Assembly: GCA_033764955.1 (NCBI GenBank)
Contig: JANRIL010000001.1
Location: 32,653-96,652, forward strand
Direction of reading: 5' to 3'
Origin: Cyanobacteriota bacterium
GTDB lineage: Bacteria; Cyanobacteriota; Cyanobacteriia; Thermostichales; Thermostichaceae
Length of the DNA: 64,000 nt
The notes under the pieces were generated by a model. It worked only from the letters and a program-made list of their open reading frames with translations, was not told where the DNA came from and ran no database searches. The first letter of the stretch is position 1; each line of letters opens with the position of its first letter. Below, one piece after another: positions 1 through 27,887 of this stretch. The translations under genes were made by a program, and so were the position numbers.

Positions 1-1464
1 CAAGAGGAGATGAGAACCCACCAAGAAGGAGAACCGTTTCCAACAAAACCTGTCCGCAAACGCTACATCATCAATCAGGGATCCTATGAGGGCAAGATTC
101 GGGTTCACTCGGAGAACCGCCGGGGACTACTCGACTACACCGATGAGTTGGCTGGGCGCTTTGCCCGTATGAATCAGTATCGGCATGGGTATGGGGATGA
201 TGCCTTCAATGATCTGAGTGAGTTTAATGGTGGGCCACTGAGTCGGGACAAAGTTGGGGGGAGTGATTATTTGCCTCGGACTGCCATCAGTTCCACCGGA
301 TCCATTCAGTGGGAGACTTTGCGCCAACTTCAGGAACAGGCGGGATCCGATGATCATGCCGGAGTCTGGGCGAGGTGGTTGTTTTGTGCGGTGCCATTGC
401 CGCCTGCACTGATCAACCTGGATGACTCCCAACCGGATCCGCTCTCTCCACTTCTCAAGTCCCTCTACATTCAGTTAGACGAACTCCCCGACCAAGACTT
501 TTTCCTCAGTGATGCTGCTAAACAACGATTCCAAACTTGGCAACATTCCCTTGTCCATCGCACTCAGGCAGAGATTCATCCGGCTCTGAAAGCGGCCTAT
601 CCCAAACTCGAAAGCTATGGGGCACGATTGGCTCTGCTCTTGCATTGTGTCTGGGCAGTTGTAGAGGCCAAGAAACCGGATCCGGTCATCTCCGGCGAAA
701 CGATGCAACGGGCTATCGAACTCACCAACTGGTTTGCGGGGCAGATGCGCCTGGTGCTGGCTCACAATAGTCCCCTCAAACAGACGGAAGGGGAGCTACT
801 CAAGATCCTGAATGTGCTCAAGCGTAGAGGATCTGTGACAGCTCGTGAGATCCGCAACTATTGCTGGACGCTCCGAACTAAACCCTTGCCGGAGATCCGG
901 CAGATGATGGTACGCCTTGCCCACTCTGGGTTTGCCACTCTCACCGGAGAGGGAGAACGGATCCGGCTGTGTGTAGAGAGTGTAGCGGCTGTAGTAGAGG
1001 AGCCTCTACATGCTGAAACGCTTTCCCAGTCAGAAATACAGCAATTCGTAGCGACTGTAGAGGGAGAAGGGGGGGTAGAGAAAAATGGGAACTATTCTGT
1101 TCTGGATCCACCTGATTTCTCTACGCAAGGGGGGGATCCCCTCTACACCCCTACAGCAATGTCTGAAATCCAGATAGAGCAAGAGGTTGAGCCAGTAGAG
1201 ACTGACCTCTCCACTCCACTACATCCCTCTACAAGTTTGTGCTGCTCACCGCCTCAGCGGTTACCGCTCCTGCAAGTAGGAGACATTTGCCGTTATGTCG
1301 GATCACATGGCGTTCTGGGGGTGACTTGCCGGGGAAGGGATCTCAAGGTGCTTGAGGTGAAAGGATCCGTGGCGACGGTCAACGCTCTCAAGGATTTCTT
1401 TCACCACCATGAGTGGATCCATCCCTATGACATTGAGATCCAATATCTGAGAAAGAGATCTTGA
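1..1464 (+). CDS. DUF3987/YfjI-like replication (primase/helicase-associated) protein of an integrative element; 5'-truncated by the window
   Basis: Frame is open from base 1. DUF3987-type motifs 'GLLDYTDELAG', 'STGSIQ', 'GVWARWLF', 'YGARLALLLH'. Followed by a winged-HTH-like segment; adjacent to an integrase. Confidence 0.75.
   Translation, partial: QEEMRTHQEGEPFPTKPVRKRYIINQGSYEGKIRVHSENRRGLLDYTDELAGRFARMNQYRHGYGDDAFNDLSEFNGGPLSRDKVGGSDYLPRTAISSTGSIQWETLRQLQEQAGSDDHAGVWARWLFCAVPLPPALINLDDSQPDPLSPLLKSLYIQLDELPDQDFFLSDAAKQRFQTWQHSLVHRTQAEIHPALKAAYPKLESYGARLALLLHCVWAVVEAKKPDPVISGETMQRAIELTNWFAGQMRLVLAHNSPLKQTEGELLKILNVLKRRGSVTAREIRNYCWTLRTKPLPEIRQMMVRLAHSGFATLTGEGERIRLCVESVAAVVEEPLHAETLSQSEIQQFVATVEGEGGVEKNGNYSVLDPPDFSTQGGDPLYTPTAMSEIQIEQEVEPVETDLSTPLHPSTSLCCSPPQRLPLLQVGDICRYVGSHGVLGVTCRGRDLKVLEVKGSVATVNALKDFFHHHEWIHPYDIEIQYLRKRS
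973..1232. repeat. Array of short GTAGAG/CTCTAC-type repeats in both orientations (iteron-like) inside the replication gene
   Basis: GTAG(A/C)G at 973, 982, 994, 1048, 1057, 1075, 1195. C(T/C/A)CTAC at 1004, 1119, 1141, 1149, 1217, 1227. GTAGCG(G/A)CTGTAG at 982 and 1048. Confidence 0.7.
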
Positions 1465-1496
1465 GATCCATGAGTTCTTCACCAAGAGATAAAATT

Positions 1497-1820
1497 ATGG
1501 TTGATAAAACTCTCAGAGAACAAAGTCAGCAATATGTCAAATTTGCTCTGCCAGAATTAGTTCTGAAAGAGTTGTTTGTTGAGCCTCTGATTATTCAAGA
1601 AAGGCTAGGTTTGTCAATCAGAACCTTACAGATCTTGAGAAGGGAAGGCTCCCTAATTCAAGGGATCCATTTTTCCGAAATCAACACTAGATTAATTGTC
1701 TATAATCTACCCTTAATGATCGATTGGGTTGCTAACCGTCATGATCCAGACGCTCACATCAAAGCTATCGAAAACTTTCAGGCTAGCTTACTGAGTAATC
1801 GAAGCAGAAGACGTGGCTAA
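1497..1820 (+). CDS. Excisionase-like HTH DNA-binding protein (alternative starts 1461/1470)
   Basis: Small basic protein with the HTH-like segment 'ERLGLSIRTLQILRREG..GIHF', convergent on an integrase. Confidence 0.6.
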   Translation: MVDKTLREQSQQYVKFALPELVLKELFVEPLIIQERLGLSIRTLQILRREGSLIQGIHFSEINTRLIVYNLPLMIDWVANRHDPDAHIKAIENFQASLLSNRSRRRG

Positions 1821-3022
1821 TGTGATGCAGTAGGAACCATTACAGGCACTTCAACTTGATTGATAATCCCTAAATAATGCTGAGAAATGATCCATTCTGA
1901 GTTCCCTACCCACTTAGCAACGTGTTTAGTCGGGATCCCAGCTTCAATACACTGGGTGATAAAAGTATGGCGCGTCTGATAGGGTTTCCGATACTCAATA
2001 CCACACTGGGAAAGGATTTTCTTCCAAGCTCCAAAACAAAAGTGATACCAATTAATATACTGACCCCCTCTGGGAGCGGGAAAAATCAAATCTGTTGGAC
2101 TGGCATTCTCTGGTTTGATGGATTTTAATAAAGCCTGCAAATTCAAGTTGCAGGGAAAGCGGCGCTTCTCTTGTGTTTTTAGGCCATCTTTCATTACAGG
2201 ACGATAGGATCCATCCATTACTACTGCCTGCTCAAATAAAATCTCGTTCCCTAACCAGTGTCGCCACTCCAATGCAATTGCTTCACCTGGTCGGCATCCT
2301 GTAGCAAAAAGTAGTTGGACTAAAGGTGTATAAACTTTGTAATAGGTTGATTTAGAAAATGCTCGAATAATCTTAGATTGCTCCTGGGGAGTGAATGGCC
2401 TAATATCCATTTCATCATCTTCGGTTCTTTTCTTCGTCTTAATTTTGATTTCAGAAGCCATTCCCTGGAATGGATTGGACTCAATGAGTCGTGCTTTAAC
2501 AGCCCACTTGCAGCAGGCTGACAATTGAACCATGATCCGCTTAGCACCATAAGCCGTCAAATGACCTGTGAGGTAAAGGTGAATGAGTTCAGCATCCTCA
2601 AGCTTTTGAGTGGGGAATTTAGCTATATGACGCCGAACATGGTTATGGACGGTTCTCACAGTGCCAGGGGTAACATTGGGGAGTCGATAGACAGTGTAAC
2701 GATCCCAGAGGTCTCCAATCAAAGACTGGGATGGTGTGGACGAATCCTTCAACGGATCCTTGGACTGACTCAGTTTACCTGTCGTTGCTGACTGGGGTTT
2801 GTACTTCGCTAAGGTGGGATCCACTTCCCCGTAAGCAATGTCTCGCTCAATCTGGGCTGCCCGCATTTCAGCCGCCTTGCGGTTAGCTTTACTATCCGGC
2901 AGCCCTAACGAAAGATAGTACCGTCGCCCCAAGTAGCTAAAGACCAACTGAAGGCGCTGGTTACTCACCTTAATTTGGACGGATCCAGCACTGGCCTTCC
3001 GAGGCTGATTGGCTGACTGCAT
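1817..3022 (-). CDS. Tyrosine recombinase/integrase with N-terminal arm-binding (DUF3596-like) domain
   Basis: 'TGCRPGEAIAL' (Arg box I), 'KPYQTRHTF', 'WVGNS..IISQHY' (catalytic Tyr). N-terminal 'LQLVFSYLGRRYYLSLGLPD' arm domain. Confidence 0.93.
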   Translation of the reverse strand: MQSANQPRKASAGSVQIKVSNQRLQLVFSYLGRRYYLSLGLPDSKANRKAAEMRAAQIERDIAYGEVDPTLAKYKPQSATTGKLSQSKDPLKDSSTPSQSLIGDLWDRYTVYRLPNVTPGTVRTVHNHVRRHIAKFPTQKLEDAELIHLYLTGHLTAYGAKRIMVQLSACCKWAVKARLIESNPFQGMASEIKIKTKKRTEDDEMDIRPFTPQEQSKIIRAFSKSTYYKVYTPLVQLLFATGCRPGEAIALEWRHWLGNEILFEQAVVMDGSYRPVMKDGLKTQEKRRFPCNLNLQALLKSIKPENASPTDLIFPAPRGGQYINWYHFCFGAWKKILSQCGIEYRKPYQTRHTFITQCIEAGIPTKHVAKWVGNSEWIISQHYLGIINQVEVPVMVPTASH

Positions 3023-3030
3023 AAGAATAA

Positions 3031-3064
3031 GGGGTAAGACTGCTTACCCCAATCTTACCCCAAT
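3031..3064. promoter_or_regulatory. Putative integrase arm-type binding sites
   Basis: CTTACCCCAAT tandem at 3043-3053 and 3054-3064, plus inverted GGGGTAAG at 3031-3038, between int and the tRNA. Confidence 0.55.
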
Positions 3065-3158
3065 TAATGGCCTGAAGTCGTTGGAACTAGGCAGAACTCG
3101 TCGGGTAGGGATCCCTCAACATCTTGCCAGAAGGCTTGTCCAGAGCCAGTTTTGTTGA

Positions 3159-3231
3159 TGGGGCGTACAGGACTTGAACCTGTGTAGGGCAAATTATGAG
3201 TTTGCTGCCTGAACCGCTCGGCCAACGCCCC
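3159..3231 (-). tRNA. trnI: tRNA-Ile2 (anticodon CAT, lysidine type); CCA not encoded
   Basis: Minus strand GGGGCGTTGGCCGAGCGGTTCAGGCAGCAAACTCATAATTTGCCCTACACAGGTTCAAGTCCTGTACGCCCCA folds as a cloverleaf. D-arm and anticodon arm resemble cyanobacterial trnI-CAU more than Met tRNAs. Confidence 0.9.
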
Positions 3232-3295: not shown

Positions 3296-4807
3296 CTAAG
3301 GGAGAAAGGTCTCTAGCAGGTAACGATTTTTTTGAAATTCATTGAGCAAAAGCTCCACCTCAATCTGCCATAAGCCGGACTGAGCCATCTCTCCTCCGTG
3401 CCAGAAAAAGGAGTTTTTTGGGGATTGCTGCATAGGACGACGAATCGGATCAATATCTTGTTCGGGCAGGGAAAAGACTAAAGTGGCGGTCAGGGGATCC
3501 CGATCGGTCTGGGTTTTCAAAATTAGGGTATTTTCTCCGGCACGACAGGGAATGATGCAGAGAGTAATGGCTTGACCCGTGCTGTCCGTAGCCGTAAGTT
3601 GGCACTGGTTTTGTTCAGGCGGGTGGGTCTGGGCGAATCCAGAGGGATCCTGTTCCACCAGAGCCGTCGTGACCAGCAGGAGCAGCGCCAGTCCGAGGAT
3701 CTCGACGGTGACCATACGGCGGAGGCGGGGTAAGACTAGCAGGGATCCCTGAGCTAGGGTAGGCAGGAGGCGAAATTTATTGTGGGCAGCCAAACCCAGC
3801 AGCAGCAGCACGATCAGCAGTTTGAACAAGACAAGTTGAGTATAGAGATTGCGGATCTGCCAAGGCCACCCCAGATGGATCAACCCCAACCCCAATCCAG
3901 CCAGTGTTAACAGAGGCACAATCAGAGTAGCTCGCCTGGAAAAGTGCTGAATGGCTTGCCGATCCGCTTTTCCCAAAGCAATTCGCAGCAATCCCCCTCC
4001 CCAAAAAGCAATACCAGCTAGGTGCAGAAACAAGATCCCCATCGCCGGGATCCCCTGTCTAGCTGAATGCCCTACCCCACAAAAGGAGAGCAGTACTAAG
4101 CCTTGCCCCCAGCCTCGCGTAGGCACAGCCAACAAACCCAGCATCCCCAGCATCCGCACACCAGCGCTGATCCCATAGGCGGAGGTGAACAGGGATCCCC
4201 AACCCGTGCCAGACCCCTCCCCATACAACTGCATAAATTGGGTCAGTAGCCCCGCCCCGCTAGCCGCCATCGTTACCCCAATGCACCAGAGCAAGCCACG
4301 GCGAGACCAGCCCGCTATCCCCACACTCAGTAGGGATCCCCCGTACAGGAGTGCCCGCCCACCCGCCCCCCCCCAGCGCCATGGATCCCAGGCATCAGGA
4401 TGAGGGATATCCCCCGCTTGAGCTACCCCCACCGAAAAGACGAACCCTCCCCGCACCGGATGACCATCCGCCGAGATGGCTCGCCAACTCACTGTGTAAA
4501 GCCCCCTCGGCAAGTCGGTCTGAAGGGACACTGTTGCCTGCTCACCAGCCACCACAGGGGATCCCTGAACCACCGTTTCACCAGCCGCATTCAGCACCCG
4601 CAATTGGGTTACCTCAACCGTTTCGTTGAAGTGCAAGACCACTTCGGGGGGAGAATTGACCAAGACCTCTTGATCCGCAGGCTGAGTGTGCCGCAAAGCC
4701 GCATGAGCTAGGGCAGGATCCCCAGATAAGCCAAGAACCAGACACAACCCCAGCAACAAAAAAACAACCAATCGATAGCAATGATTCATAGACACTTGCC
4801 CAACCAC
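3296..4807 (-). CDS. CopC-CopD fusion (YcnJ-like) copper uptake/resistance protein with C-terminal YtkA-like domain
   Basis: Signal peptide ending ALA-HA (N-terminal His), 'SWRAISADGH' CopC motif, CopD transmembrane helices ('HLAGIAFWGGGL'), C-terminal 'GLWQIEV'. Confidence 0.88.
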   Translation of the reverse strand: MVGQVSMNHCYRLVVFLLLGLCLVLGLSGDPALAHAALRHTQPADQEVLVNSPPEVVLHFNETVEVTQLRVLNAAGETVVQGSPVVAGEQATVSLQTDLPRGLYTVSWRAISADGHPVRGGFVFSVGVAQAGDIPHPDAWDPWRWGGAGGRALLYGGSLLSVGIAGWSRRGLLWCIGVTMAASGAGLLTQFMQLYGEGSGTGWGSLFTSAYGISAGVRMLGMLGLLAVPTRGWGQGLVLLSFCGVGHSARQGIPAMGILFLHLAGIAFWGGGLLRIALGKADRQAIQHFSRRATLIVPLLTLAGLGLGLIHLGWPWQIRNLYTQLVLFKLLIVLLLLGLAAHNKFRLLPTLAQGSLLVLPRLRRMVTVEILGLALLLLVTTALVEQDPSGFAQTHPPEQNQCQLTATDSTGQAITLCIIPCRAGENTLILKTQTDRDPLTATLVFSLPEQDIDPIRRPMQQSPKNSFFWHGGEMAQSGLWQIEVELLLNEFQKNRYLLETFLP

Positions 4808-4808
4808 C

Positions 4809-5348
4809 CTAATGGCTAGCGGTTTCCCGCACCAACTTCAACAGAGGGGCAGGCTCTGCCAACTCCTCAGGATCCTCTCCAGGGGCAGCCACTTCAATCC
4901 AGCGATGAACCCCTTGTTCACATTCCTGCACCACCGGAATGGGCACCACTTGATCCGGTAGATCCGGCAATTTAAGACTGAGGCTAAATTCATCCATAAA
5001 CTCGTCGAGCAAAGGTCCCCCCGTCCACACCACCTCCGCCACAGTTTCGGTAATGGGTTTCCCGTGGGATTCGATCGGAGTGTCTAACTTGACCTTAACC
5101 GTGCTGATCTCCCAGCCGGGATGCACCATCGGTTTGACCGAGAGAGAACCCTTAGGCAGTTGCACCCGCACTTTAGTGGTAGGGGATCCCTCACAACCAT
5201 GAGGCACACGGAAGGTGAGCTTGGCATAACCGTTAGCAGGAGCCTCTTTAGGCCAAACCGTAACATGGGCTAATGATGGGGGAGTTATCCCGACGACAAG
5301 ACTAGAGGTTAGCACCGAAAAACAGATCGTTCGCAATCGTGTAATCAT
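4809..5348 (-). CDS. YcnI-family (DUF1775) copper-binding protein
   Basis: 'AHVTV', 'FRVPHGCEGSPT', 'VVWTGG', 'QECEQG..RWIE', 'PAPLL'. Confidence 0.9.
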   Translation of the reverse strand: MITRLRTICFSVLTSSLVVGITPPSLAHVTVWPKEAPANGYAKLTFRVPHGCEGSPTTKVRVQLPKGSLSVKPMVHPGWEISTVKVKLDTPIESHGKPITETVAEVVWTGGPLLDEFMDEFSLSLKLPDLPDQVVPIPVVQECEQGVHRWIEVAAPGEDPEELAEPAPLLKLVRETASH

Positions 5349-5494
5349 TTTTATGTGGGTAGAGAGTTAACAATTCAAACCATTAAGCTAATCCAAAATA
5401 GCCAATCCAAAACTAGCCAAGTGCTAGCTACTTCCGTCCATGGAAAGTTATTTTCACCCAGGATGGAATCAAAGTCTCACGCTGAGAGGAGCAA

Positions 5495-5514
5495 GTCAAA
5501 AGACGGACTGTCAA
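5495..5514. promoter_or_regulatory. Operator-like motif GTCAAAAGAC-N5-GTCAA upstream of ycnI (PetR-type GAC-N5-GTC core)
   Basis: GTCAAAAGACGGACTGTCAA; same 15 fixed bases as at 7080-7099. Confidence 0.65.
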
Positions 5515-5556
5515 ACATCAACATGGCCAACCATTGGACAACCTCACCATCTCTAC

Positions 5557-6426
5557 CTAACCCACCGCCACAGACGGGAAACTCTGGATACTTTTTTCTA
5601 CTGCCAGATACCAATTTTGTTCAGCTTCCTGGAGGTGAGGATCCAGTTGCAACGCCCATTTGAATTGCTCAATCGCTGCATTCATCTGTCCTGTTTGAGC
5701 CAAACTTACCCCTAACCCATTGTGAGCCGCTGCCCAATCTGGTTTGAGTTGAATGGCTAGGGAGAAAGAATCCACAGATTTGATGGGATCCATCCGTCGT
5801 TCAACCATACCCATCACATAATAAATTCTTGCATCCCTTGGGTTCAGATCCATCGCTATCTTCAATTGCTCTTGAGCCGCATGATGCTGATCTTCTTGAT
5901 ATAGAGCCTCTCCCAAAGCAATATGAGATTCTATCAGGGCTGGATCCAAATCAACAGCCATTTGCAATTGCTCAATTGCCAGAAAAAGATCTCCTTTAGC
6001 AAGTAAGACATTAGCAAGATTGTGGTGAGTCTGAGCAAGATTAATTATACTTTCTCCCCTCCGATCGCCATTTAATAAATTTAATGATAGCTCTAATTCA
6101 AACTCATGAAGAGCTTCTTCGAGATATCCAGTTTGAGCCAGTATACTACCCAGATTATTATGGGCATTAGGGTGAGAAGGATTACTCTGGAGAGCTAAGC
6201 GAAACTTTTGAGCCGCTTGATCCCATTGCTGCTGCTGATAAAGGTGAAGCCCTTCCTCAAAGTAAATTCCTGATTGATAAAGTGGATCCTGAATTGCATG
6301 GGCGATCAAGGGCAAGACTAATAGATTTAACATAACCCCTAAGCCAATCAAAAGCAGGGTGGCAGCTAGGATATAAATAGTTTTCCATAATTGATGAGCC
6401 CAAGAAAAAGGTTCCTGCTCAGACAT
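5557..6426 (-). CDS. Membrane-anchored tetratricopeptide-repeat protein
   Basis: N-terminal transmembrane helix; repeated 'AHNNLG/AHNGLG...A..L.P' TPR units. Confidence 0.85.
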   Translation of the reverse strand: MSEQEPFSWAHQLWKTIYILAATLLLIGLGVMLNLLVLPLIAHAIQDPLYQSGIYFEEGLHLYQQQQWDQAAQKFRLALQSNPSHPNAHNNLGSILAQTGYLEEALHEFELELSLNLLNGDRRGESIINLAQTHHNLANVLLAKGDLFLAIEQLQMAVDLDPALIESHIALGEALYQEDQHHAAQEQLKIAMDLNPRDARIYYVMGMVERRMDPIKSVDSFSLAIQLKPDWAAAHNGLGVSLAQTGQMNAAIEQFKWALQLDPHLQEAEQNWYLAVEKSIQSFPSVAVG

Positions 6427-6490
6427 GAATTTATCCCCAATTGGTTCGCCGACTGAATTGAATAACTAACTACTAATCACTACCCATCAT

Positions 6491-6907
6491 TTAGTCATCT
6501 GCACAGGCTAACAAAACTGAATTTTCCCTAAGATTAGCTAAGTTCTTTCCCCAGTTCCTTTGAGCTTGGTCTAACACATAGGCAGCTACCGAATCAATCT
6601 CTTCCGGCTTGAGTCGTTTACCAAAAGCAGGCATTCCTCCCTTGCCATAAGTTACTTGCTTAATTACTGCTTCCTGTGAATCCATGCTATATTTTTGCAG
6701 GGTTTGAAGATAGAGATTTTTGTCAGGCATAACAGAATTTTTACCCCCCATGTGGCAGCCAATGCAGTTAGCCTTAAATATCTTGGCTCCCTGCGTTAAG
6801 TCAGCTTCGGCAAAAGCAGGGAATGTAAGGATCCCACACATGAACATGGAAAGTAATAACAAACCTATGGCACGAATCCACTTTCTTATCTGCATATTCA
6901 GCATCAT
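6491..6907 (-). CDS. petJ: Cytochrome c6
   Basis: Signal peptide AFA, CIGCH heme motif, 'KQVTYGKGGMPAFGKRL' with the axial Met and the c6-type Gln. RBS before the ATG at 6907. Confidence 0.88.
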   Translation of the reverse strand: MMLNMQIRKWIRAIGLLLLSMFMCGILTFPAFAEADLTQGAKIFKANCIGCHMGGKNSVMPDKNLYLQTLQKYSMDSQEAVIKQVTYGKGGMPAFGKRLKPEEIDSVAAYVLDQAQRNWGKNLANLRENSVLLACADD

Positions 6908-7079
6908 CCTTTCTCTCCAAAGCAAGACATTTCCCAAAACACCTAAACAACTATTGTCGAGCTATTTTGAGCATCACGAACTAACACAAACAATCTGTGC
7001 AAAACTCAGATAAAAATTTGACTAGATTTGAGCAGTACTTTATTCCTTGCCACTATTTTGCTCCAGCTTGTCTGCCGGT

Positions 7080-7099
7080 GTCAAAAGACAGCTTGTCAA
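7080..7099. promoter_or_regulatory. Operator-like motif GTCAAAAGAC-N5-GTCAA upstream of petJ, overlapping TTGACA hexamers on the minus strand
   Basis: GTCAAAAGACAGCTTGTCAA; partial repeat CAGCTTGTC at 7064-7072. Confidence 0.65.
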
Positions 7100-8925: not shown

Positions 8926-10491
8926 TCAAATCTTCTCCGCTTGGGCATCACCATCCGCCATTGTCTGGATCGCTGCTGGGGATCCGGATTGCCACCAAGC
9001 TTGAGCGAGTGCCTGGATTTGGCGAATGGTCTCCGGTTCGAGACGATCCAGGTGAGCTAGCACCAACCCCATCCGACCTAGCCCCTGCAAGGTTTGGCGA
9101 TGTCTCAGTAAAAAATCCCAATAAAAGAAGTTAAACGGGCAAGCGTCCTCCCCAACTTTCTGGTTGTGATGATAGTGGCAAGAGCGGCAATAGTCACTCA
9201 TGCGATGGATGTAATTGGCGGAGGCGGCGTAGGGCTTGCTGGCGAGCATTCCCCCATCCGCAAACAACCCCATGCCAAGCACATTGGTTTGCATCACCCA
9301 ATCATAACTATCAATAAAGACCGCATGAAACCACGATTCCATGACTTGGGGTTGGATGCCGCTAATCAAGGCAAAGTTGCTGAGAATCATCAGCCGTTGA
9401 ATGTGGTGAGCATATCCGGTGCGCTGAATTTGATCGATGACTTGATGTAAACAATTCAAGTCTGTCTGTCCTGTCCAAAAAAAGTCGGGTAACGGATGTT
9501 GATGCTGAAAGGTATTCTGTTGAGCATAGTGATCGGGCATTAGATATTCATAAAGACCGCGCATATATTCTCGCCATCCCAATATCTGTCGAATAAATCC
9601 CTCCACACTGTTGATCGGGATCCCGTTCGTCCAGTAAGCATTTTCGGCCTCTTGGATTACCTCCTGAGGGGTCAATAGCCCCATATTTAGATAAGGAGAA
9701 ATCAAGCTATGCCAAAGGCTATCGGATCCCGTTACCATCGCATCTTGCCAAGGACCAAATTGGGTCAACCGATGGGCTAAAAAATCTTGTAAAACCAGCC
9801 AAGCCTGTGGTCGAGTCACCGCCCAGCCAAAGTTTTTCAGGGATCCAAAGTGATGGGTATAGTGGGTAGAGACTTTCTGGATGACCGTCTGGGTGATGGC
9901 ATCGGGGGGGAAATGGAGAGGGCTGGGAAAAGTGACTTGAGCAGGTGGAGGTTGGCGATTCTGGCTATCAAAATTCCACGCCCCGCCACAGGGATCCCTT
10001 CCTTCCATCAAAATCTGAAATCGTTTGCGCCCCGCTCGATAAAAATCTTCCATCAACAGACGTTTCCGACCTTTTGCCCATATCAGAAACTCGGATCTTG
10101 ACCAGAGAAAATGATTATTTTCAAGGAGGACAATCGGACAAGGAAGTTGAGGGGCTATGGCTTGAACGTATTCTCGAAAAGGAATATCGGCTGGGGTCAT
10201 CAGGCGAATTTCCCTGAGGTTTCGCTCCGTTGCCCAGTCATGCAAAGGGATGACAAAATCGACAGATTCTACATACGTGACTGGATAGCCCTGCTGGTGC
10301 AGTGCTTCTGCAAAATGACGCATAGCTGACCAGATCAGTACCAGCTTTTGTTGATGAAAATTACGCTGGTTTACCCAAGCCTGCGACTCGATCAAAATCA
10401 CCGGAATGGTGGCCGGATCGTCGGAAAGGCAGGCCAAAGCCGACTGTTGAGGATGCAGTTGATCGCCTAAAATCCAGACGCCTACGGTCAT
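8926..10491 (-). CDS. FeS-type cryptochrome/photolyase (FeS-BCP, PhrB/CryB-like (6-4) photolyase)
   Basis: 'ILGDQL', 'HQQKL..IWSAMRHFA', 'GYAHHIQRLM', and four cluster Cys (LNCL, YCRSC, ACPFN). Confidence 0.92.
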   Translation of the reverse strand: MTVGVWILGDQLHPQQSALACLSDDPATIPVILIESQAWVNQRNFHQQKLVLIWSAMRHFAEALHQQGYPVTYVESVDFVIPLHDWATERNLREIRLMTPADIPFREYVQAIAPQLPCPIVLLENNHFLWSRSEFLIWAKGRKRLLMEDFYRAGRKRFQILMEGRDPCGGAWNFDSQNRQPPPAQVTFPSPLHFPPDAITQTVIQKVSTHYTHHFGSLKNFGWAVTRPQAWLVLQDFLAHRLTQFGPWQDAMVTGSDSLWHSLISPYLNMGLLTPQEVIQEAENAYWTNGIPINSVEGFIRQILGWREYMRGLYEYLMPDHYAQQNTFQHQHPLPDFFWTGQTDLNCLHQVIDQIQRTGYAHHIQRLMILSNFALISGIQPQVMESWFHAVFIDSYDWVMQTNVLGMGLFADGGMLASKPYAASANYIHRMSDYCRSCHYHHNQKVGEDACPFNFFYWDFLLRHRQTLQGLGRMGLVLAHLDRLEPETIRQIQALAQAWWQSGSPAAIQTMADGDAQAEKI

Positions 10492-25141: not shown

Positions 25142-26161
25142 TTAGGGGTTAACCCCTCCTGAAAAGGGTTGATAGGAGCCTCCCAACGCTTGCACAATGG
25201 TACGGGTATTGGCCTCCATCATGGCGATATAGCTCTCCGCTCCACTGCCCTGACCACCTAAGGAATCGGAATAGAGTGGATCCGGTGCTAATGTTACTTG
25301 GGCTTCCGCCGCTACCGTTTGAATCAGCATGGGGTTAATGGTGGTTTCGGCAAAGATGGCCGCGGTCCCGGCTTCTTGAATGGAATCCACCAGCCGCGTC
25401 ACCGTTTGGGCACTGGGTTGTTCCTCGGTGCTGATGCCGATCAGGGATCCCCCCAACTCCAGTCCATAGGCATGAGCATAATACTGAAAGGCATCATGGG
25501 TGGTGACAAGGATTCGATATTGGGGAGGAATCGTTTGAATTTGCTGCTCAATCCACCTGTCGAGAGCCGACAATTGAGCCAGATAGTCACGGGTGCGCTG
25601 CTGAAATTGGGTTTGATTCGCCGGAGATACCTCAACCAACGCATCGCGGATCGCCCCCACCATGAGCATGACATGAGCTACATCCCCCCACACATGGGGA
25701 TCCGGCACCTGCTGCCCGTTATAGCTCGTTTGCAAAGGGGGAACCACCTCCCCCACCGCCAGTTTCTCGGCTTTGACGCCCGCCCCTTCCATGAGGCGGA
25801 TCAGCCCTGGCTCAAGGTTGTAGCCGTTGTACAAAATCAAATCTGCTTCTTCTAGAGCACGACTATCGGCGGGAGTGGGTTCATAAATATGCGGATCGGT
25901 GCCTGCTTCTAGCAAACCGGTGTGATGGATCGCTTCTCCCGCAATGGTTTCCGTCCAATCGGCAATCAAGGTGCTGGTGGAGACAACCCGTGCTAACGAG
26001 GGATCTTCCTGCTCAGCCAGAGCACAACCCAGCCCTCCAGTCAACAAACAGCCTATCAAGGCTAAAGGGATCCCAATGCCGGAGATTTTCCTGTTTGGCA
26101 GGATGGCACTTTGCCGCCCTGTATTTTTGGGTAGCCCCGCATTCTGGGGAGAGGTTTTCAT
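25142..26161 (-). CDS. mntC: Mn/Zn ABC transporter solute-binding protein
   Basis: DPHIYEP, DPHVW, THDAF, YSDSL ligand motifs; ManR-type boxes upstream. Confidence 0.85.
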   Translation of the reverse strand: MKTSPQNAGLPKNTGRQSAILPNRKISGIGIPLALIGCLLTGGLGCALAEQEDPSLARVVSTSTLIADWTETIAGEAIHHTGLLEAGTDPHIYEPTPADSRALEEADLILYNGYNLEPGLIRLMEGAGVKAEKLAVGEVVPPLQTSYNGQQVPDPHVWGDVAHVMLMVGAIRDALVEVSPANQTQFQQRTRDYLAQLSALDRWIEQQIQTIPPQYRILVTTHDAFQYYAHAYGLELGGSLIGISTEEQPSAQTVTRLVDSIQEAGTAAIFAETTINPMLIQTVAAEAQVTLAPDPLYSDSLGGQGSGAESYIAMMEANTRTIVQALGGSYQPFSGGVNP

Positions 26162-26186
26162 GATCCGCCTGCCTGTGGAGAGAAGA

Positions 26187-26248
26187 TTTTCATGATCATT
26201 TCATTTTTATCCTAGACCTTCTGCTAAACTATGAAAAGACTATGAAAA
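26187..26248. promoter_or_regulatory. Two oppositely oriented ManR-type boxes in the divergent mnt promoter
   Basis: Plus strand 26230-26248 TATGAAAAGACTATGAAAA, against the Anabaena ManR site TATGAAAAGAATATGAGAA as recalled. Minus strand 26205-26187 AATGAAATGATCATGAAAA. Confidence 0.75.
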
Positions 26249-26268
26249 TCAATTCTCCCTCTCATTCC

Positions 26269-27018
26269 ATGACGGCTCTTCCCCCTTCTGCTCTGTCTAG
26301 GATCACCATCACCGATTTGCGGGTGTCCTACCGTTCTCACCTGGCACTCGATCAGATCACTACCCAGTTGGCGGCAGGACAACTGACGGGCATTGTGGGG
26401 CCTAATGGAGCTGGCAAAAGTACCCTAATCAAGGCCATGTTGGGACTGATTCCCATTGAGCGGGGGGAGATCACCCTGGATGGACAACCCGTGTCTGGAC
26501 AGCGCCGCCGCATTGCGTATCTACCGCAGCGCTCCCAAATTGATTGGACTTATCCGGCCACGGTCTGGGATGTTGTTTTGATGGGGCGAGTGCGAAAAAC
26601 TGGGTGGTTACGGCATTTTTCCTCCAACAGTCGAGAGTTAGCCCATGCTGCCCTAGCCAGGGTGGGTTTAGCGGATTTGGCCAATCGCCCGATTGGGCAA
26701 CTGTCGGGAGGACAACAACAGCGGGTGTTTTTAGCACGGGCATTGGCACAGGAAGCCGACATTTTGGCTTTGGATGAACCGTTTGCCGGAGTGGATCAAA
26801 AAACGGAAGGGATCCTCTTCGACATCCTCCGCCAGCTTGCCGATCAGGGATCCACCGTGTTGATCATTCACCACGACCTAGGAACCGCCATTCGACGGTT
26901 TGATCACCTGCTGTTACTCAACCAGCGACTAATCGCCCAGGGATCCCCCCACCAGGTTTTACAACCCCACTACGTGCAGCAAGCCTACGGGGGCTATGGG
27001 TTGCCTGAGGTGGCCTAA
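26269..27018 (+). CDS. mntA: Mn ABC transporter ATP-binding protein
   Basis: GPNGAGKST, LSGGQQQR, DEPFAGVD. Start moved to 26269 because 26242 lies inside the ManR box. Confidence 0.88.
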   Translation: MTALPPSALSRITITDLRVSYRSHLALDQITTQLAAGQLTGIVGPNGAGKSTLIKAMLGLIPIERGEITLDGQPVSGQRRRIAYLPQRSQIDWTYPATVWDVVLMGRVRKTGWLRHFSSNSRELAHAALARVGLADLANRPIGQLSGGQQQRVFLARALAQEADILALDEPFAGVDQKTEGILFDILRQLADQGSTVLIIHHDLGTAIRRFDHLLLLNQRLIAQGSPHQVLQPHYVQQAYGGYGLPEVA

Positions 27019-27887
27019 TGGGAGAAGGGATCCTGTCACTGATCTGGGAACCGTTGCAATACAGCTTTATGCAACGGGCACTGTTGGTGGCGGTGGCGGT
27101 TGGCATCCTCTGCGCGGTCATGGGCAGTTATTTGTTGGTGCAACGGCTGGCGCTGTTGGGGGATGCCATTAGTCATTCCCTGTTGCCGGGATTAGCGCTG
27201 GCTTTTATGGTGGGGGTGAATATTTTTGTCGGAGCCTTTATCGCCGGGGTGATTAGCACCCTCTTGATTCATGCCATCCGCTCCCGCACGACTCTTAAGG
27301 AAGATGCCGCGATGGGGGTTGTCTTCTCAGCGTTTTTTGCCTTAGGGATTACCCTGATCACGCTCCTGCAAAAGGCGCAAAAAATTGACCTCAATCACTT
27401 TTTGTTTGGCAATATCTTGGGGGTGACGGCAGAGGATGTGTGGATAACCATTGCAATTGCGGGACTGGTTTTGCTGGTGGTAGCCCTTCTTTATAAAGAG
27501 CTTTTGTTTGTCAGTTTTGATCCGATTGGGGCGCAAGCTGCCGGGATCCCAGTGGCGGGGTTAAATGCCAGTTTGATGGTGCTGGTTTCCCTCACCCTAG
27601 TCGCCAGTATGAAAGCCGTCGGGGTGTTGCTGGTCTTAGCCATGCTGATCACCCCTGGAGCCACCGCCTATTTGTTGGTGCCCCGTCTGCATCAGGTGAT
27701 GGGGGTGGGATCCCTGCTGGGGGTGGTGGGTAGTGTGATGGGTCTGTATGGCAGTTATTACCTGAATGTGCCCTCTGGTCCGGCGATTGTCTTGGTGGTC
27801 TCCCTGGGATTTTTCCTGGCGCTACTGTTTAGCCCCAGCCAGGGATTATTGACTCGCCCCCATCCTCCAGGATCCCCTCAACCTTGA
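27018..27887 (+). CDS. mntB: Mn ABC transporter permease
   Basis: 'LLGDAISHS..PG', 'KEDAAMG', 'HFLFGNILGV'. Confidence 0.88.
   Translation: MGEGILSLIWEPLQYSFMQRALLVAVAVGILCAVMGSYLLVQRLALLGDAISHSLLPGLALAFMVGVNIFVGAFIAGVISTLLIHAIRSRTTLKEDAAMGVVFSAFFALGITLITLLQKAQKIDLNHFLFGNILGVTAEDVWITIAIAGLVLLVVALLYKELLFVSFDPIGAQAAGIPVAGLNASLMVLVSLTLVASMKAVGVLLVLAMLITPGATAYLLVPRLHQVMGVGSLLGVVGSVMGLYGSYYLNVPSGPAIVLVVSLGFFLALLFSPSQGLLTRPHPPGSPQP

Follow-up and report, generated by a model that had tools for sequence, protein, structure and literature searches.

We analysed a 64,000-nt window (the whole stretch of DNA studied here) of contig JANRIL010000001.1, which belongs to a cyanobacterium of the family Thermostichaceae whose assembly (GCA_033764955.1, labelled G000 among the family genomes) comprises 3.8 Mb and is 89% complete. 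Between positions 3296 and 7099, four genes encode cytochrome c6 (PetJ), a TPR protein, a DUF1775 protein (YcnI) and a YcnJ-type CopC-CopD fusion (CopCD), and a putative binding site for the regulator PetR lies ahead of both petJ and ycnI. The genes and promoter elements were as follows.

6491-6907, minus strand: petJ, cytochrome c6, assigned from profile and structure matches.
5557-6426, minus strand: gene, 64 nt downstream of petJ, for a TPR protein that has a single hydrophobic segment at its N-terminal end.
4809-5348, minus strand: ycnI, a DUF1775 protein with a signal peptide, a mature N-terminal His28 and an invariant Trp.
3296-4807, minus strand: copC-copD fusion gene of the YcnJ type, assigned from Pfam, alignment and a predicted model.
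7080-7099, minus strand: predicted activator-type PetR site in the petJ promoter, ATTGAC-N9-TTTGAC with a GAC-N5-GTC core, the second TTGAC being the -35 hexamer.
7055-7060, minus strand: predicted -10 hexamer of petJ, CAAAAT, 18 nt after TTGACA.
5495-5515, minus strand: predicted activator-type PetR site in the ycnI-copCD promoter, a perfect TTTGAC-N9-TTTGAC with GAC-N5-GTC inside.
5471-5476, minus strand: predicted -10 hexamer of ycnI, GACTTT, 17 nt after TTGACT and preceded by TG-n.

The first-pass annotation, made from the sequence alone, had described one motif upstream of ycnI and petJ in the same orientation, together with four co-oriented genes, and both descriptions were accurate: all four genes lie on the minus strand, and the 20-bp motif GTCAAAAGAC-N5-GTCAA was exact at positions 5495-5514 and 7080-7099, leaving gaps of 146 nt to the ycnI ATG (5348) and 172 nt to the petJ ATG (6907), respectively. 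The window held no further copies at up to two mismatches; shuffled windows contained 0.12 matches on average, and none of 100 shuffles reached two. The whole genome contained four exact copies, none with one mismatch and seven with two; the motif is rare in the genome.

Published work gives the PetR core as GAC-N5-GTC; at petJ an extended form, TTTGAC-N9-TTTGAC, lies at -35 and PetR activates, and at petE an inverted form lies between -35 and -10 and PetR represses (Garcia-Canas et al., 10.1101/2020.07.31.226407). On the coding strand, all 12 fixed bases of this direct repeat were matched by the ycnI copy, which encloses GAC-N5-GTC, and 11 of 12 by the petJ copy, with the core kept. We predict that both boxes are PetR sites of the petJ type that overlap the -35 element. 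The annotation had given the core correctly and had called PetR a repressor of this switch; that label needs correcting, because PetR activates promoters with the direct repeat at -35 and represses petE alone. We also looked for nAnnnT hexamers in 131 sites of other cyanobacterial genomes. Measured from the second TTGACN, such a hexamer stood 17 or 18 nt downstream at 113 of the 131 sites, compared with 2-25 sites for eight other spacer pairs and 5 of 131 sites when the same distance was counted from the first TTGAC. All four exact sites of G000 fit this -35/-10 spacing.

The regulator itself is encoded elsewhere in the genome, where petR and petP form an overlapping pair (C18:68170-69470); PetR matched PF03965 with 98.5 bits, and an HExxH motif was read by eye in the downstream frame, petP. 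In agreement with the annotation, which had seen no YcnK, CsoR or CopRS regulator nearby, we found no copper regulator among the nine open reading frames (ORFs) at the locus or among the 36 window ORFs scanned from position 8926 onward (mostly 200 aa or longer, smaller ORFs lying outside the scan). G000 has a single CsoR/RcnR-family gene, on a different contig from the cluster. No match was found in this 89% complete genome to the NosL domain, which we take to be the sensor domain of YcnK.

A scan of 201 genomes of the class for TTGAC-N5-GTC-N-TTTGAC returned 185 exact matches in 108 genomes, compared with 23 matches for the reversed pattern used as a control. The exact site was present in 104 of the 139 genomes with a PetR match, as against 4 of the 62 without one; since related genomes are not independent, these counts are descriptions and not significance tests. 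In a distance check on 32 same-contig pairs chosen by hand, with 35 of the 185 sites outside the set covered, petR lay within 300 nt of a site in at least 25 genomes among the matches listed.

Within the family, ycnI was present in 14 of the 22 genomes besides G000, and it was found in none of the 38 genomes sampled outside the family. Its link with the site was kept in three layouts. The 12 genomes of genus g2 all carry a shared operon of petJ, a GLTT-repeat ORF rich in His and Met, and ycnI, headed by one site; in G013 (genus g6), as in G000, ycnI has a site of its own, petJ and ycnI of G013 being divergent, with three sites in the intervening DNA and petRP adjacent; and in G006 a two-mismatch site lies about 45 nt before ycnI. 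The link has been retained through rearrangement; motif conservation at ycnI orthologues, which the annotation had proposed to check, is found in the family. None of 41 non-cyanobacterial ycnI loci carried the motif at up to two mismatches.

These layouts bear on a different explanation, in which a petJ promoter was duplicated or hitch-hiked to ycnI and has no selective meaning there, or in which the factor reading the ycnI site is not PetR. Local duplication would be easy between neighbouring genes, some relatives have a detached copCD without a site, and one site of G000 heads an unrelated gene. On the other hand, the ycnI and petJ copies have the fixed motif positions alone in common, with N5 and flanks that differ; the 6.5-kb G006 locus, with its site before ycnI, contains no petJ; and the site tracks both the presence and the position of petR. 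We regard this explanation as quite improbable. As a side observation, small GLTT-repeat His/Met-rich proteins (L045:2677-3021 and L091:1573-2139) are encoded behind the site; in g2 the gene stands between petJ and ycnI, and elsewhere such an ORF precedes an HMA-domain gene. None was found in G000.

The predicted model of the CopCD fusion (mean pLDDT 83) shows a CopC domain (residues 35-126), about eight helices (143-385) that form CopD, and a C-terminal beta-sandwich (about 400-503); the Pfam CopC and CopD profiles both scored above cut-off. The best match of the CopC domain was that of Bacillus subtilis YcnJ (9c14; E 4e-10, TM 0.90). Its His brace (His35 and Asp114-x-His116) aligned with 9c14 and, in a separate alignment, was invariant in 21 rows, as were the CopD membrane residues His247 and His262; the essential CopD His of B. 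subtilis YcnJ is H295, and the full-length protein lies outside this alignment. The C-terminal domain is YtkA-like, with a TM of about 0.8 between predicted models. We considered and rejected a wide distribution of CopD in cyanobacteria: Pfam CopD matched in 165 of 201 genomes, but scores above 55 bits came from family members only, mostly in long frames, and of the lower-scoring matches opened, two 200-aa frames looked HemJ-like by eye and one was a small 150-aa membrane protein.

YcnI is predicted to be a soluble periplasmic Cu(II) binder. Its N-terminal His and Trp were invariant in 16 rows that included Bacillales homologues, B. subtilis YcnI itself being outside the alignment. A subtype with His and Trp and without Glu is mainly proteobacterial (PMC8424229). 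Identity to proteobacterial DUF1775 proteins was 46-58% over the full domain, compared with 29-50%, mostly over part of it, for Bacillota; the closest named relatives were Thermostichus and hot-spring Synechococcus records. In a midpoint-rooted tree of 30 rows (27 of 49 loci, mostly the longer matches, plus three of the family), the cyanobacterial sequences grouped as a single clade (100/99); a 100/100 split separated Bacillota from the proteobacterial side, where this clade lay. YcnI was likely gained once from a proteobacterial-type donor. A PDB sequence search with YcnI returned 3esm alone, as a weak match. The annotation's Bacillus-like module therefore stands in part: a YcnJ-type CopC-CopD-YtkA protein does share the petJ site, whereas YcnI is proteobacterial-type, lacks the Glu and the anchor, and precedes the importer.

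PetJ has CxxCH, the Gln of QVTYG and the Met of GMP; its closest solved structures are cytochromes c6, its NF045930 score (132.5 bits) fell just under the cut-off of 135, and it was the sole c6 found in G000. Separately, about 19 residues (window 6491-6550) extend beyond the usual C-terminal Trp of PetJ as a Cys-containing tail.

Taking these results together, PetR probably activates both petJ-TPR and ycnI-copCD at low copper, coupling copper sparing by cytochrome c6 with copper acquisition by YcnI and CopCD; since the same box precedes petJ and ycnI-copCD, PetR likely switches on copper scavenging too. We infer the PetR steps from Synechocystis, and Cu(II) capture with CopD-dependent uptake or metalation from Bacillus YcnIJ. 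In the absence of copper, PetP would be idle, and PetR would accumulate and activate both promoters; once copper returned, PetP would degrade PetR. Cytochrome c6 would take over from plastocyanin and so spare copper. Soluble YcnI and the CopC His brace would capture periplasmic Cu(II), and CopD would pass copper into or across the membrane, with plastocyanin, cytochrome c oxidase or the two together as possible clients. Cu(II) moves between YcnI and YcnJ in B. subtilis, where copper-limited cells depend on the histidines of CopC and CopD for growth and oxidase function (PMC12362106, PMC13344008).

The opposite logic, in which the module buffers or detoxifies copper and PetR represses it until copper releases it, as at petE, is also conceivable on general grounds. 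Binding over -35 might in principle obstruct RNA polymerase, and CopC and CopD were first described in resistance operons. BlaI/CopY proteins, moreover, are usually repressors (10.1101/2020.07.31.226407). However, the ycnI site has the same direct-repeat form and -35 placement as the PetR-activated petJ site, the repressed petE class is an inverted repeat between -35 and -10, and every g2 genome places ycnI behind petJ in an operon headed by a single site, all of which make this logic extremely improbable here.

Other genes under the site extend the case for activation of copper acquisition. In family relatives, the site is followed by genes for MbnP and MbnH (TIGR04052 and TIGR04039, above cut-off). 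Across the 23 family genomes, 13 had ycnI only, 8 had mbnP only, 2 had both and none had neither; the two with both are among those with a detached copCD. A site with no more than two mismatches immediately precedes all 10 family mbnP genes. In the slot divergent from petJ-TPR, genus g6 carries ycnI-copCD in one genome (G013) and mbnP-mbnH in two others (G005 and G011); petRP adjoins this slot in G013 and G005. We did not find mbnP in G000. Copper binding by MbnP relies on a kynurenine site that MbnH makes, and the biological role is stated as unresolved (PMC11951088; PMC3621798 for background).

The third exact site of G000 (C26:7664) lies 50 nt ahead of a gene fusing DsbD_2 (HCxxMC) to a ferric-reductase-like domain (L002:7664-9459, in G000:C26), which is followed by a gene for a 167-aa exported protein. 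In this partner, a His stands directly after the predicted signal peptide (by eye), and the predicted fold is YtkA/FixH-like; it showed no sequence likeness to the C-terminal domain of CopCD. The fusion, which is uncharacterised, is a strong candidate for copper uptake.

Across the class, we examined the downstream DNA of 132 of the 185 sites and recorded the first recognised gene within 450 nt, with some cluster labels set by eye; 30 loci came with the scan output and 100 regions were chosen by hand and biased to second sites, and the shares are therefore not frequencies. The first gene was petJ at 50 sites, the DsbD_2 fusion at 13 and a TonB receptor at 13 (plus 2 behind a DJ-1 gene), followed by a His-rich exported protein (8), the GLTT ORF (5), mbnP (5), PepSY_TM (5), an OprB porin (3), DUF2231-COX2 (3), cydA (2), DsrE (2) and smaller classes (9). 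Anywhere downstream, the DsbD_2 fusion occurred at 27 of the 132 sites and a TPR gene at 30 (the TPR label being given by family, not by established orthology); the TPR gene of the window is likely co-transcribed with petJ. Most of the site-led TonB receptors form one clade with 45-91% identity, and some carry database names as cobalamin receptors. Several Anabaena TonB receptors are induced by copper limitation (Mirus 2009, PMC2771747); they are not linked to the site-bearing clade, and we did not count them as support.

At other loci, cydA, which encodes the copper-free cytochrome bd, stands directly under the site or ends a site-led operon (L124, L127, L116 and L118), an arrangement that would be a second copper-sparing substitution. 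Separately, five sites in a single family have a gene for a Sod_Cu-family protein downstream of petJ (L179, L181, L182, L186 and L195).

These modules also bear on a reading in which PetR activates the genes at low copper and the proteins act as a metallation relay to the CuA and CuB centres of cytochrome c oxidase, with no net import. B. subtilis YcnJ supports Qox and Cta, with "import and/or metalation" left open, and the YtkA domain is similar to CtaK, a factor for CuA assembly (PMC13344008). G000 has one COX1, and some class-wide sites head DUF2231-COX2 operons. By contrast, the membrane CopD domain has been kept with invariant histidines, and the alternation with MbnPH, together with the same site ahead of TonB receptors and porins, points to acquisition. 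Although cydA was not found in G000 (89% complete), its presence in 20 of 22 relatives means that the oxidase is not the sole terminal route; for the same reason we dropped the idea that cytochrome c oxidase is the sole terminal oxidase and hence the importer's client. Taken as a whole, a relay without import is unlikely.

Returning to PetR-activated acquisition, the predicted PetR site heads several alternative envelope or metal modules across cyanobacteria, a scope that the annotation had underestimated. In many cyanobacteria, PetR likely controls a regulon for copper starvation, with an uptake arm of interchangeable modules: YcnI-CopCD in this family, and MbnPH, the DsbD_2-reductase fusion with its YtkA-like partner, or a TonB-dependent receptor elsewhere. 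The broader proposal, that PetR is a general cyanobacterial copper-starvation activator and that the site-led modules (YcnI-CopCD, MbnPH, the DsbD_2-ferric-reductase fusion, one TonB clade and porins) are the missing high-affinity importers, accompanied by copper-free substitutes such as cytochrome bd, has in our judgement a slightly better than even chance of being correct.

Several observations weigh against PetR-activated acquisition in one or another of its parts. The PetR regulon measured in Synechocystis consists of four members (petE, petJ, slr0601, slr0602; 10.1101/2020.07.31.226407). On the petE side, the annotation had expected the motif at petE and had placed the module under the petE/petJ switch; a petJ-type site does stand ahead of ycnI, but petE of G000, on C34, has no GAC-N5-GTC within 300 nt upstream, and 22 of 23 petE loci in the family (L046-L068) lack the core, which was present in 1. 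A relaxed count gave 6 petE sites in the family, compared with 8.4 in shuffles. Reciprocal repression of petE is therefore not evident in the family; judging from these promoters, the PetR switch may be one-sided here, and plastocyanin may be constitutive or controlled another way. Further points concern the sites themselves. The ycnI -10 hexamer (GACTTT) is weak and falls below the bar of a consensus scan. One of the four exact sites of G000 (C16:3130-3149, L001), which has a partial third repeat, lies about 220 nt ahead of a pentapeptide-repeat gene without a copper link; this pairing was absent from the other family sites examined, and the site is possibly left over from a lost operon. At twelve of the 132 sites examined across the class, the gene that follows is of another kind or none is recognised; among 10 family loci of the DsbD_2 fusion, 6 have the site, and the upstream DNA is short or cut at two of those that lack it. 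As for the module, 7 of the 12 g2 genomes have copCD immediately after ycnI and 1 (G017) has it past a 1-kb insert, but it does not follow ycnI in the other 4: G014 and G020 have an intact, detached copCD without a site (up to three mismatches) in the roughly 650 nt visible upstream, copCD of G018 is a fragment, and G022 has none downstream of ycnI. Finally, CopC and CopD score under the NCBIfam equivalog cut-offs, YcnI has H-G-C where Bacillales have V-E and so lacks the Glu ligand, and we found no C-terminal hydrophobic segment that could serve as a membrane anchor, which B. subtilis YcnI needs (PMC12362106).

The cluster is bounded by one further feature, which is outside the copper system.

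3159-3231, minus strand: tRNA-Met(CAT), the boundary to an integrase-bearing element.

Beyond this tRNA, window positions 1-3231 are an integrated element abutting the copper cluster, with a DUF3987 ORF, a 119-aa ORF without a Pfam match and a tyrosine integrase adjoining the tRNA. The idea that this element brought the copper cluster was unsupported: the integrase lies across the tRNA, and ycnI occurs in 14 of 22 relatives in varied surroundings. Elsewhere in the window (25142-27887), a ZnuA-type binding protein gene is divergent from ABC ATPase and permease genes for Zn/Mn uptake. In the whole genome, GGGATCCC, which we take to be a variant of the cyanobacterial highly iterated palindrome, occurs in 4915 copies, as against 109 of GCGATCGC.

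The available text of Garcia-Canas et al. (10.1101/2020.07.31.226407) calls the cyanobacterial copper importer unidentified and places no uptake system in the regulon. In the available parts of two reviews, CtaA is the sole well-characterised importer, with CopD unmentioned (PMC12292863, 2025), and the PetR targets listed are petE and petJ only (PMC13421787, 2026). Our literature search, outside which subscription papers and bioRxiv supplements lay, found no prior description of a PetR site on copper-uptake genes. The regulator, its site and each protein family were known already; what appears to be new is their combination, a PetR regulon with an uptake arm. The genes described here are candidates for this importer, and a rare, position-fixed site turns the gap into a short list of testable genes. 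The site also ties two poorly understood modules, MbnPH and the DsbD_2-reductase fusion, to copper starvation, and it would place an apparently foreign module under the host's regulator.

Compared with known systems, MbnP/MbnH resembles the module in pairing a copper-binding protein with a partner, a di-heme enzyme, in the same regulatory slot in relatives; it differs in that its sequence is unrelated to YcnI and CopCD and in its absence from G000. In Bradyrhizobium, PcuE is a CopC/CopD fusion encoded after pcuD. PcuD, which is homologous to YcnI, has been linked with copper acquisition (PMC8424229), and pcuABCDE has been studied under copper starvation for oxidase assembly (PMC6669012); unlike pcuABCDE, the G000 cluster has no TonB receptor or PCuAC gene, and host and regulator differ. 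The system resembles B. subtilis ycnKJI (PMC8424229, PMC12362106, PMC13344008) in its DUF1775 protein with an N-terminal His and a Trp, in its CopC-CopD-YtkA protein with a His brace and DxH, and in its expected role of copper acquisition under limitation. It differs in lacking YcnK, in a regulator that would instead be an activator degraded in copper, in its diderm host, in the position of ycnI before the importer, and in a YcnI that lacks the C-terminal anchor and Glu and groups with proteobacterial homologues. The likeness to Synechocystis PCC 6803 PetRP lies in a BlaI-family PetR with an overlapping gene for the protease PetP, in GAC-N5-GTC and in TTTGAC-N9-TTTGAC at the petJ -35; unlike in Synechocystis, petE of G000 has no site, and the site also heads ycnI-copCD and the DsbD_2-reductase operon.

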